Positions 2,856 through 6,408 of a stretch of DNA of 6,408 nucleotides are shown here, piece after piece. The translations under genes were made by a program, and so were the position numbers. Each line of letters starts with the position of its first letter. Positions within the stretch are counted from its first letter, which is position 1. The stretch comes from Escherichia phage fd, in sequence record NC_025824.1. One strand, given 5' to 3'. The notes under the pieces are model-generated. The model made no database searches, was not told where the DNA came from, and worked only from the letters and a program-made list of their open reading frames with translations.

Positions 2856-3194
2856 ATGCCAGTTCTTTTGGGTATTCCGTTATTATTGCGTTTCCTCGGT
2901 TTCCTTCTGGTAACTTTGTTCGGCTATCTGCTTACTTTCCTTAAAAAGGGCTTCGGTAAGATAGCTATTGCTATTTCATTGTTTCTTGCTCTTATTATTG
3001 GGCTTAACTCAATTCTTGTGGGTTATCTCTCTGATATTAGCGCACAATTACCCTCTGATTTTGTTCAGGGCGTTCAGTTAATTCTCCCGTCTAATGCGCT
3101 TCCCTGTTTTTATGTTATTCTCTCTGTAAAGGCTGCTATTTTCATTTTTGACGTTAAACAAAAAATCGTTTCTTATTTGGATTGGGATAAATAA
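2856..3194 (+). CDS. VI: gpVI, minor coat protein at the gpIII end of the virion (112 aa)
   Basis: ATG at 2856, two bases after the gene III stop; AAGGAG at 2842..2847. Hydrophobic product MPVLLGIPLLLRFLGFLLVTLFGYLL..., stop TAA at 3192..3194. Recognised as Ff gene VI. Confidence 0.96.
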   Translation: MPVLLGIPLLLRFLGFLLVTLFGYLLTFLKKGFGKIAIAISLFLALIIGLNSILVGYLSDISAQLPSDFVQGVQLILPSNALPCFYVILSVKAAIFIFDVKQKIVSYLDWDK

Positions 3195-3196
3195 AT

Positions 3197-4243
3197 ATGG
3201 CTGTTTATTTTGTAACTGGCAAATTAGGCTCTGGAAAGACGCTCGTTAGCGTTGGTAAGATTCAGGATAAAATTGTAGCTGGGTGCAAAATAGCAACTAA
3301 TCTTGATTTAAGGCTTCAAAACCTCCCGCAAGTCGGGAGGTTCGCTAAAACGCCTCGCGTTCTTAGAATACCGGATAAGCCTTCTATTTCTGATTTGCTT
3401 GCTATTGGTCGTGGTAATGATTCCTACGACGAAAATAAAAACGGTTTGCTTGTTCTTGATGAATGCGGTACTTGGTTTAATACCCGTTCATGGAATGACA
3501 AGGAAAGACAGCCGATTATTGATTGGTTTCTTCATGCTCGTAAATTGGGATGGGATATTATTTTTCTTGTTCAGGATTTATCTATTGTTGATAAACAGGC
3601 GCGTTCTGCATTAGCTGAACACGTTGTTTATTGTCGCCGTCTGGACAGAATTACTTTACCCTTTGTCGGCACTTTATATTCTCTTGTTACTGGCTCAAAA
3701 ATGCCTCTGCCTAAATTACATGTTGGTGTTGTTAAATATGGTGATTCTCAATTAAGCCCTACTGTTGAGCGTTGGCTTTATACTGGTAAGAATTTATATA
3801 ACGCATATGACACTAAACAGGCTTTTTCCAGTAATTATGATTCAGGTGTTTATTCATATTTAACCCCTTATTTATCACACGGTCGGTATTTCAAACCATT
3901 AAATTTAGGTCAGAAGATGAAATTAACTAAAATATATTTGAAAAAGTTTTCTCGCGTTCTTTGTCTTGCGATAGGATTTGCATCAGCATTTACATATAGT
4001 TATATAACCCAACCTAAGCCGGAGGTTAAAAAGGTAGTCTCTCAGACCTATGATTTTGATAAATTCACTATTGACTCTTCTCAGCGTCTTAATCTAAGCT
4101 ATCGCTATGTTTTCAAGGATTCTAAGGGAAAATTAATTAATAGCGACGATTTACAGAAGCAAGGTTATTCCATCACATATATTGATTTATGTACTGTTTC
4201 AATTAAAAAAGGTAATTCAAATGAAATTGTTAAATGTAATTAA
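3197..4243 (+). CDS. I: gpI, inner-membrane assembly ATPase (348 aa) with an N-terminal Walker A motif
   Basis: ORF 3197..4243. P-loop GKLGSGKT at residues 8-15 (about 3218..3241). Recognised as Ff gene I. Confidence 0.96.
   Translation: MAVYFVTGKLGSGKTLVSVGKIQDKIVAGCKIATNLDLRLQNLPQVGRFAKTPRVLRIPDKPSISDLLAIGRGNDSYDENKNGLLVLDECGTWFNTRSWNDKERQPIIDWFLHARKLGWDIIFLVQDLSIVDKQARSALAEHVVYCRRLDRITLPFVGTLYSLVTGSKMPLPKLHVGVVKYGDSQLSPTVERWLYTGKNLYNAYDTKQAFSSNYDSGVYSYLTPYLSHGRYFKPLNLGQKMKLTKIYLKKFSRVLCLAIGFASAFTYSYITQPKPEVKKVVSQTYDFDKFTIDSSQRLNLSYRYVFKDSKGKLINSDDLQKQGYSITYIDLCTVSIKKGNSNEIVKCN
3917..4243 (+). CDS. XI: gpXI, in-frame internal restart within gene I (C-terminal 108 aa of gpI); assembly protein
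   Basis: ATG at 3917..3919 is in the gene I frame and shares its stop. Product begins MKLTKIYLKKFSRVLCLAIGFASAF... and is 108 aa, the known size of gpXI. Confidence 0.8.
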   Translation: MKLTKIYLKKFSRVLCLAIGFASAFTYSYITQPKPEVKKVVSQTYDFDKFTIDSSQRLNLSYRYVFKDSKGKLINSDDLQKQGYSITYIDLCTVSIKKGNSNEIVKCN

Positions 4244-5501
4244 TTTTGTTTTCTTGATGTTTGTTTCATCATCTTCTTTTGCTCAAGTAATTGAAATGAA
4301 TAATTCGCCTCTGCGCGATTTCGTGACTTGGTATTCAAAGCAAACAGGTGAATCTGTTATTGTCTCACCTGATGTTAAAGGTACAGTGACTGTATATTCC
4401 TCTGACGTTAAGCCTGAAAATTTACGCAATTTCTTTATCTCTGTTTTACGTGCTAATAATTTTGATATGGTTGGCTCAATTCCTTCCATAATTCAGAAAT
4501 ATAACCCAAATAGTCAGGATTATATTGATGAATTGCCATCATCTGATATTCAGGAATATGATGATAATTCCGCTCCTTCTGGTGGTTTCTTTGTTCCGCA
4601 AAATGATAATGTTACTCAAACATTTAAAATTAATAACGTTCGCGCAAAGGATTTAATAAGGGTTGTAGAATTGTTTGTTAAATCTAATACATCTAAATCC
4701 TCAAATGTATTATCTGTTGATGGTTCTAACTTATTAGTAGTTAGCGCCCCTAAAGATATTTTAGATAACCTTCCGCAATTTCTTTCTACTGTTGATTTGC
4801 CAACTGACCAGATATTGATTGAAGGATTAATTTTCGAGGTTCAGCAAGGTGATGCTTTAGATTTTTCCTTTGCTGCTGGCTCTCAGCGCGGCACTGTTGC
4901 TGGTGGTGTTAATACTGACCGTCTAACCTCTGTTTTATCTTCTGCGGGTGGTTCGTTCGGTATTTTTAACGGCGATGTTTTAGGGCTATCAGTTCGCGCA
5001 TTAAAGACTAATAGCCATTCAAAAATATTGTCTGTGCCTCGTATTCTTACGCTTTCAGGTCAGAAGGGTTCTATTTCTGTTGGCCAGAATGTCCCTTTTA
5101 TTACTGGTCGTGTAACTGGTGAATCTGCCAATGTAAATAATCCATTTCAGACGGTTGAGCGTCAAAATGTTGGTATTTCTATGAGTGTTTTTCCCGTTGC
5201 AATGGCTGGCGGTAATATTGTTTTAGATATAACCAGTAAGGCCGATAGTTTGAGTTCTTCTACTCAGGCAAGTGATGTTATTACTAATCAAAGAAGTATT
5301 GCGACAACGGTTAATTTGCGTGATGGTCAGACTCTTTTGCTCGGTGGCCTCACTGATTACAAAAACACTTCTCAAGATTCTGGTGTGCCGTTCCTGTCTA
5401 AAATCCCTTTAATCGGCCTCCTGTTTAGCTCCCGTTCTGATTCTAACGAGGAAAGCACGTTGTACGTGCTCGTCAAAGCAACCATAGTACGCGCCCTGTA
5501 G
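4221..5501 (+). CDS. IV: gpIV, outer-membrane secretin for phage export (426 aa including a 21-aa signal peptide)
   Basis: ATG at 4221 preceded by AAGGT (4209..4213). Signal peptide MKLLNVINFVFLMFVSSSSFA then QVIEMNNSPLRDF... The ORF track's 4182 start is an upstream in-frame ATG inside gene I. Start overlaps the end of gene I by 23 nt; stop TAG at 5499..5501. Recognised as Ff gene IV. Confidence 0.95.
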   Translation: MKLLNVINFVFLMFVSSSSFAQVIEMNNSPLRDFVTWYSKQTGESVIVSPDVKGTVTVYSSDVKPENLRNFFISVLRANNFDMVGSIPSIIQKYNPNSQDYIDELPSSDIQEYDDNSAPSGGFFVPQNDNVTQTFKINNVRAKDLIRVVELFVKSNTSKSSNVLSVDGSNLLVVSAPKDILDNLPQFLSTVDLPTDQILIEGLIFEVQQGDALDFSFAAGSQRGTVAGGVNTDRLTSVLSSAGGSFGIFNGDVLGLSVRALKTNSHSKILSVPRILTLSGQKGSISVGQNVPFITGRVTGESANVNNPFQTVERQNVGISMSVFPVAMAGGNIVLDITSKADSLSSSTQASDVITNQRSIATTVNLRDGQTLLLGGLTDYKNTSQDSGVPFLSKIPLIGLLFSSRSDSNEESTLYVLVKATIVRAL

Positions 5502-6006: not shown

Positions 6007-6408
6007 ATGATTGACATGCTAGTTTTACGATTACCGTTCATCGATTCTCTTGTTTGCTCCAGACTTTCAGGTAATGACCTGATAGCCTTTGTAGACCTCT
6101 CAAAAATAGCTACCCTCTCCGGCATGAATTTATCAGCTAGAACGGTTGAATATCATATTGACGGTGATTTGACTGTCTCCGGCCTTTCTCACCCGTTTGA
6201 ATCTTTGCCTACTCATTACTCCGGCATTGCATTTAAAATATATGAGGGTTCTAAAAATTTTTATCCCTGCGTTGAAATTAAGGCTTCACCAGCAAAAGTA
6301 TTACAGGGTCATAATGTTTTTGGTACAACCGATTTAGCTTTATGCTCTGAGGCTTTATTGCTTAATTTTGCTAACTCTCTGCCTTGCTTGTACGATTTAT
6401 TGGATGTT
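6007..6408 (+). CDS. II: Replication initiation endonuclease gpII, 5' portion (runs off the window end and continues in phase at 1..831)
   Basis: ATG at 6007, open through 6408 (402 nt = 134 codons, no stop). Translates to MIDMLVLRLPFIDSLVCSRLSGNDLIAFVDLSKIATLSGMNLSARTVEYHIDGDLTVSG... Recognised as the gpII N-terminus. Confidence 0.92.
   Translation, partial: MIDMLVLRLPFIDSLVCSRLSGNDLIAFVDLSKIATLSGMNLSARTVEYHIDGDLTVSGLSHPFESLPTHYSGIAFKIYEGSKNFYPCVEIKASPAKVLQGHNVFGTTDLALCSEALLLNFANSLPCLYDLLDV

Follow-up and report, generated by a model that had tools for sequence, protein, structure and literature searches.

The genome of Escherichia phage fd (NC_025824.1) carries gene XI, a coding sequence that lies entirely within gene I and is read in the same frame. 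The window analysed here is the whole record of 6,408 nucleotides, which represents the complete circular genome of an Ff filamentous phage (Inovirus) that belongs to the fd lineage. Gene I has genes VI and IV as its neighbours (order VI-I-IV) and encodes gpI, which is 99.1-99.4% identical to the proteins of f1 and M13 and 100% identical to those of FfIris, Copypasta and FfLilac, and which matches PHROG 1675, 'morphogenesis (protein I of M13)', with E = 6e-163. The stretch from 3917 to 4243 is the textbook gene XI of the Ff phages and as such is already known; its product, gpXI, is also referred to as pXI, gp11 or G11P. We put at about 96% the probability that the window is an fd-type Ff genome in which 3917-4243 is this known, internally initiated gene, and in which gpXI forms an assembly and export complex together with gpI. 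The features of the region are collected in Table 1.

Table 1. Genes, signals and protein segments in the gene I/XI/IV region of the fd genome
Feature	Position	Strand	Description
Gene I	3197..4243	+	gpI, 348 amino acids, 39.5 kDa; ATG-initiated open reading frame; cytoplasmic Zot-type P-loop ATPase, one transmembrane helix, periplasmic C-terminal domain
Gene XI	3917..4243	+	gpXI, 108 amino acids, 12.4 kDa calculated; nested in frame in gene I, equal to gpI residues 241-348
Shine-Dalgarno-like AGGT for gene XI	3907..3910	+	Weak; 6 nucleotides upstream of ATG 3917
Basic cytoplasmic juxtamembrane segment	3917..3955	+	MKLTKIYLKKFSR, gpI 241-253; five K/R and no acidic residue; modelled helix 237-250
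Transmembrane anchor common to gpI and gpXI	3956..4006	+	VLCLAIGFASAFTYSYI, gpI 254-270; from hydropathy, AlphaFold2 and conservation
Periplasmic beta-rich domain common to gpI and gpXI	4067..4240	+	gpI 291-348; holds Cys332 (4190-4192) and Cys347 (4235-4237)
Shine-Dalgarno-like AGGT for gene IV	4210..4213	+	Within the gene I/XI coding sequence, 7 nucleotides upstream of the ATG
Gene IV	4221..5501	+	gpIV precursor, 426 amino acids, outer-membrane secretin; from Pfam, and annotated as gene IV in M13
Overlap of genes I/XI and IV	4221..4243	+	23 nucleotides; gene IV codons 1-7 and two bases of the eighth against the last seven sense codons and stop of I/XI

The ATG at 3917-3919 is codon 241 of the 348 codons of gene I, as (3917-3197)/3 = 240, and codons 169 and 241 are the only in-frame internal ATGs of the gene. 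The first-pass annotation had proposed that this ATG gives rise to a gpXI of 108 amino acids, and the letters, the frame and the length are all exact: translation of 3917-4243 yields 108 residues followed by a stop (MKLTKIYLKKFSRVLCLAIGFASAFTYSYITQ...EIVKCN*), and every coordinate that it had given is right. The internal start codon of gene I is known to yield gp11, beginning at Met241; gp11 is abolished by the substitution M241L, a phage with an amber codon at position 23 still produces gp11, and neither gp1 nor gp11 is dispensable (Loh et al. 2017, PMC5408679). Production of pXI from Met241 and its essential nature are likewise described in the cited works of Rapoza and Webster (1995) and Haigh and Webster (1999). 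The coordinates, the frame, the length, the conservation of the start and the predicted layout of helix and domain were computed here, and the production of gpXI from Met241, its essentiality and its interaction with pIV are taken from the f1 and M13 literature, with gpI being 99% identical. Gene XI is annotated in FfIris, FfLilac and related records from 2024, of which the FfIris record (PP430148) lists, at the equivalent offset (start of gene I +720), a coding sequence 'XI; formation of the phage assembly site'. Searched on its own, gpXI retrieves no Pfam family at E<=0.01 and recovers only gene I families from PHROG.

The position of the start codon is conserved to a degree that, judged from the aligned sequences, is far above chance. 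The alignment comprises 113 full-length database homologs with 50-96% identity which together with the window sequence amount to 114 aligned sequences, and Met occupies column 241 in 111 of the 113 homologs. The nine positions that precede it (232-240) equal the query in only 4-51% of the sequences. Met241 is also kept without exception in nine orthologs from inoviruses, whose identity goes down to 46% (including M13, If1, IKe, PEar6, I2-2, VFJ and two other Vibrio phages). In two homologs with Val at this position (P0038 in the Halomonas prophage L011 and P0075 in the metagenomic relative L012, at ~2215-2223 in each) the codon is GTG and is followed two codons on by ATG. Their Shine-Dalgarno motifs, at -7.1 and -6.6 kcal/mol, fall in the top 0-1% of positions within their own gene, and these two GTG-start relatives are the only ones that stand out in this respect. 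The replacement by GTG in combination with a strong Shine-Dalgarno motif is what would be expected of a position under selection as an initiation site. The motifs of the two relatives are far stronger than those in the ATG-start phages, which looks like compensation for the weaker start codon. The start Met is removed by a deletion of four residues in one homolog, P0104, encoded on a Pectobacterium carotovorum contig (L013, 1501-3293). This gene adjoins a gene IV that is broken into open reading frames of 106 and 136 amino acids and has an integrase close by; because of the fragmented gene IV, the element is probably a decaying prophage. That Met241 is kept, or replaced by GTG, in ~120 relatives would make the nested gene general among gpI-type assembly genes of phages that carry a secretin of their own.

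The N-terminal part of gpI, which is not shared with gpXI, is an ATPase of the Zot type. Pfam family PF05707 (Zot) matches residues 2-185 (E = 2e-53, 181 bits against a gathering cut-off of 20.3), and both the Walker A motif (G8-T15, GKLGSGKT; motif GxxGSGKT) and the Walker B residues (D88/E89) are present, with G8, G11, G13, K14, D88 and E89 invariant in the gpI alignment. The nearest solved fold of this domain is the N-terminal domain of Neisseria Zot (PDB 2r2a). In the fold search with full-length gpI, matches to the ATPase domain (Zot 2r2a, RecA) dominate and nothing is returned on the part that corresponds to gpXI, and a sequence search of the PDB with gpI gives 0 matches. The Zot match is confined to gpI 2-185; gpXI is devoid of the ATPase domain and retains the one transmembrane helix along with the periplasmic domain.

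Residues 254-270 form the sole hydrophobic segment of gpI, and the top Kyte-Doolittle window of 19 residues in the protein spans 254-272. The AlphaFold2 model of gpI, which was built on an alignment of 62 sequences and has a mean predicted local distance difference test (pLDDT) score of 83, places helices at 237-250 and 253-271, the latter of 19 residues, after which come a linker and, at 291-347, a beta-rich domain. A separate model of gpXI agrees with that of gpI and shows the helix at gpXI 4-30. A transmembrane helix at 254-270 is likewise predicted by Loh et al. (2017, PMC5408679), who assign C332 and C347 to the periplasm. The anchor that had been proposed as shared by gpI and gpXI is thus borne out by hydropathy, by the model and by the published prediction. 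The string that had been named as the anchor, FSRVLCLAIGFASAFTYSYI, covers gpI 251-270 (gpXI 11-30, 3947-4006); its first three residues, F251, S252 and R253, are part of the basic flank on the cytoplasmic side, and the hydrophobic core is 254-270. The global hydropathy maximum lies 9-15 residues past the conserved Met in 109 of the 114 aligned sequences, the homologous segment reaches a median hydropathy of 1.96 (>=1.6 in 89/114), and G260 within it is invariant. Conserved positions in the juxtamembrane segment are T244, I246, Y247 and a K/R at 249, 250 and 253. The N-terminal flank of the anchor holds five basic and no acidic residues and the C-terminal flank three K/R and two acidic residues, from which, following the positive-inside rule, we infer an N-in/C-out topology.

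The periplasmic domain that gpI and gpXI have in common is modelled with its beta strands at a pLDDT of ~85 in both the gpI and the gpXI models. Its two cysteines, C332 and C347, are invariant in 114 of 114 aligned sequences and were found to be essential by mutagenesis (Loh et al. 2017, PMC5408679). When the gpXI model is compared with solved structures using Foldseek, eight of the nine top matches are PilP or GspC/LspC; the E-values of these matches are weak (0.04-0.6) and the structural alignments with PilP and the homology region of GspC (GspC-HR) show a sequence identity of 5-12%. As no Pfam family is found for gpXI at the above threshold, sequence homology to PilP/GspC-HR is not detected, and what is seen is a fold-level resemblance of a predicted model with which membership of the PilP/GspC-HR family is not established. 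In type II secretion and type IV pili, respectively, GspC-HR and PilP are known to link the platform in the inner membrane to the N0 domains of the secretin (PMC3169554), and the predicted fold matches the role that genetics assigns to the pI/pXI periplasmic domain. It is tentatively possible that this domain is a diverged PilP/GspC-HR module which docks onto the secretin N0 domain, in which case the purpose of the nested gene might be stoichiometric. If this were true, gpXI would supply extra docking copies free of the ATPase, which would let a small ring of gpI ATPases engage each of the 15 N0 domains in the gpIV secretin. Phage export would then have a mechanistic link, and perhaps an evolutionary one, with the platforms that serve type II secretion and type IV pili in the inner membrane. 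No mention of a PilP/GspC fold relationship was found in the searchable literature, which leaves subscription journals outside its scope and does not thereby show that the relationship is unpublished. The PilP/GspC-like fold is only a mildly new lead; as a prediction, it provides a concrete and testable model for the way in which pI/pXI in the inner membrane may grip the pIV secretin.

Nothing contradicts the reading of 3917-4243 as an internally initiated gene for a membrane-anchored protein, but it has a number of weak points. Gene XI is missing from the annotation of the RefSeq M13 genome (NC_003287, version NC_003287.2), of the f1 records and of Copypasta (OR791786.1). The Shine-Dalgarno motif of gene XI is poor, and is equalled by ~20% of the in-frame positions of gene I; the duplex between AGGT and the anti-Shine-Dalgarno sequence amounts to about -3.1 to -3.6 kcal/mol. 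The accessibility of the mRNA around 3917, expressed as mean unpaired probability from -15 to +5, is 0.44 as compared to a gene I background of 0.43 +/- 0.13. The anchor, finally, scores 1.31 in its best window, which is below the classical Kyte-Doolittle cut-off of 1.6, so that a crude predictor could wrongly refute it. The missing entries in the M13, f1 and Copypasta records are an annotation gap for an essential gene. Shine-Dalgarno strength was discarded as evidence for a start, being non-discriminating: for Ff, If1, IKe and the Vibrio phages, the upstream motif ranks only within the top 6-32% of the in-frame positions. The sequence alone would not prove initiation at 3917; it is the comparative pattern together with the literature that does so.

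With Shine-Dalgarno motif and mRNA accessibility both unremarkable, the 12-kDa species could alternatively be regarded as a proteolytic fragment of gpI, and Met241 as conserved for structural reasons only. T244, I246 and Y247 downstream of Met241 are conserved as well, which would place the whole segment under constraint at the protein level, and the title of a 1993 paper refers to transmembrane-directed proteolysis of a gpI fusion protein. However, proteolysis would not account for the loss of gp11 in the M241L mutant, in which gp1 is still functional, nor for the synthesis of gp11 in the codon-23 amber phage (Loh et al. 2017, PMC5408679). The Met is replaced solely by GTG, itself able to serve as a start codon, and both of these sites have a very strong Shine-Dalgarno motif, and the freedom of the nine preceding residues to vary fits a boundary at the start codon, all of which makes a proteolytic origin very improbable. 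A nested product that begins elsewhere in the frame is scarcely credible. Both ATG 3701 (Met169, 180 amino acids) and TTG 3938 (Leu248, 101 amino acids) are in-frame start-type codons, and the former has a somewhat higher accessibility of 0.63, but the literature places the start at Met241 (Loh et al. 2017, PMC5408679). The two candidates were rejected as neither position is conserved: among the 114 aligned sequences residue 169 is Leu in 57, Met in 24 (window included), Ile in 13, Phe in 10 and Val in 10, and residue 248 is mainly Phe or Trp.

Internal initiation at Met241 would then operate as follows. Ribosomes would initiate independently at AUG 3917, which is codon 241 of gene I, with no change of mRNA or frame, and would yield a protein of 108 amino acids that has the same sequence as the C-terminal third of gpI. 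This protein would consist of a short basic cytoplasmic segment, a helix in N-in/C-out orientation (gpI 254-270) and a periplasmic part of ~78 residues with a beta domain capable of forming a disulfide. Together gpI and gpXI would form the assembly and export complex of the inner membrane, and the periplasmic domain that they share would probably be in contact with N0 of the gpIV secretin. The pI/pXI proteins are described as the part of the egress machine that resides in the cytoplasmic membrane and makes contact with the pIV secretin at its N0 domain (Conners et al. 2021, 2023), for which the genetic evidence is summarised in the earlier of the two papers. The way in which the domain may dock onto gpIV is inferred from the similarity of the fold.

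Downstream, gene XI ends together with gene I inside gene IV. The gpIV protein is recognised by Pfam as a secretin (PF00263, E = 4.5e-44, 150.5 bits) with a GspD-like N0 domain (PF21305, 46.4 bits) and a Secretin_N domain (PF03958, 33.5 bits). Its ATG at 4221-4223 is one base off the frame of gene I, as (4221-3197) mod 3 = 1, and the protein opens with MKLLNVINFVFLMFVSSSSFA. The first-pass annotation had gene IV start at 4221 and overlap the last 23 nucleotides of gene I in a different frame, and these boundaries agree with the annotation of M13, f1 and FfIris. The mechanical list of open reading frames pushes gene IV back to TTG 4182; the accepted start is ATG 4221, as annotated in M13. The starts of genes XI and IV are alike (3907-3924 and 4210-4228), each with AGGT, a spacing of 6 or 7 nucleotides and ATGAAATT, and both proteins begin with Met-Lys-Leu, a similarity which is probably trivial. 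A scan of 3000-4400 for promoters and terminators returned five promoter-like sites where 5.4 are expected, and 0 terminators. A sigma-70-like site, TTAAAA-17-TATGAT, is situated at 4026-4054 inside gene XI and ~170 nucleotides upstream of gene IV, in a scan where the number of sites is not above chance. It may correspond to the weak gene IV promoter of the older Ff literature.

The order of genes I and IV is conserved among the relatives and the junction between them is not. The overlap of 23 nucleotides in the Ff window compares with overlaps of 20 nucleotides in If1, VFJ and the Halomonas prophage, of 32 nucleotides in the metagenomic relative and of a single nucleotide in Vibrio phage 10N, and with gaps of two nucleotides in IKe, PEar6 and I2-2 and of 17 nucleotides in Vaf1. 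Ordinary compaction in a 6.4-kb genome is the best reading of the overlap. That it serves beyond compact packing as a functional device for translational coupling seems rather unlikely: overlaps of 20-32 nucleotides do recur, the Shine-Dalgarno motif of gene IV lies inside gene I and fd and M13 show 0 differences in the 23 nucleotides, yet an overlap is dispensable in the family because the junction is a gap or an overlap of one nucleotide in IKe, PEar6, I2-2, Vaf1 and Vibrio phage 10N.

The remainder of the window displays the layout of an Ff genome. The list of open reading frames follows the canonical gene order (II/X, V, VII, IX, VIII, III, VI, I, IV), and gene II crosses the ends of the window (ATG 6007 to 831; 6007-6408 and 1-831), since the window holds the entire circular genome. 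For gene III, the mechanical list begins at TTG 1549, upstream of the accepted start GTG 1579 that is annotated in M13. FfIris and Copypasta are 99.2% identical to the window, aligned end to end with the same numbering, and f1 is ~97% identical, collinear and equally numbered. Over the gene I region the identity to M13 is 97.2%; genome-wide, M13 differs from the window at 194 positions, including one extra A of the window near 3193. This additional base in the A-rich junction of genes VI and I accounts for the length of 6408 as opposed to 6407 nucleotides, and for the shift of all downstream coordinates by +1 relative to M13, which for genes I, XI and IV is an offset against the M13/f1 numbering. 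Per 100 nucleotides, the divergence from M13 is 1.2 in the XI region, 3.6 in the part that encodes gpI only (3197-3916) and 5.9 in gene IV (4244-5501), with a Fisher p of 0.04 for XI against the gpI-only part. Divergence from M13 is patchy throughout the genome (0 in genes VII and IX), and the low value of the XI region may reflect embedded signals or the history of recombination.

The closest known counterpart is gene XI of the Ff phages f1, M13 and fd, with which the locus shares the codon for Met241, the product of 108 amino acids, the helix at 254-270 and the pair Cys332/Cys347; the XI region differs from that of M13 by four nucleotides and one substitution, I326L, and in essentially nothing else. 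The value of finding gene XI itself is one of annotation hygiene only, as an essential gene is missing from several reference records, and an automatic scan of raw sequence that picks it up works as it should. RefSeq M13 annotates the nested gene X and not gene XI. Gene X (496-831, 111 amino acids) follows the same nested design, since it starts at an internal in-frame ATG of gene II and its product equals the C-terminus of the larger protein. The two pairs differ in protein and in function, II/X being a replication initiator and its regulator. The Zot protein of CTXphi and the Neisseria Zot (2r2a) resemble the N-terminal domain of gpI, to which the Pfam Zot family corresponds, and which is exactly the part that gpXI is without. 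PilP and GspC-HR, in turn, may resemble the other end of the protein, with the difference that the domain in the window is known from a model and not from a solved structure, contains two essential cysteines and in gpI is fused to a Zot-type ATPase.
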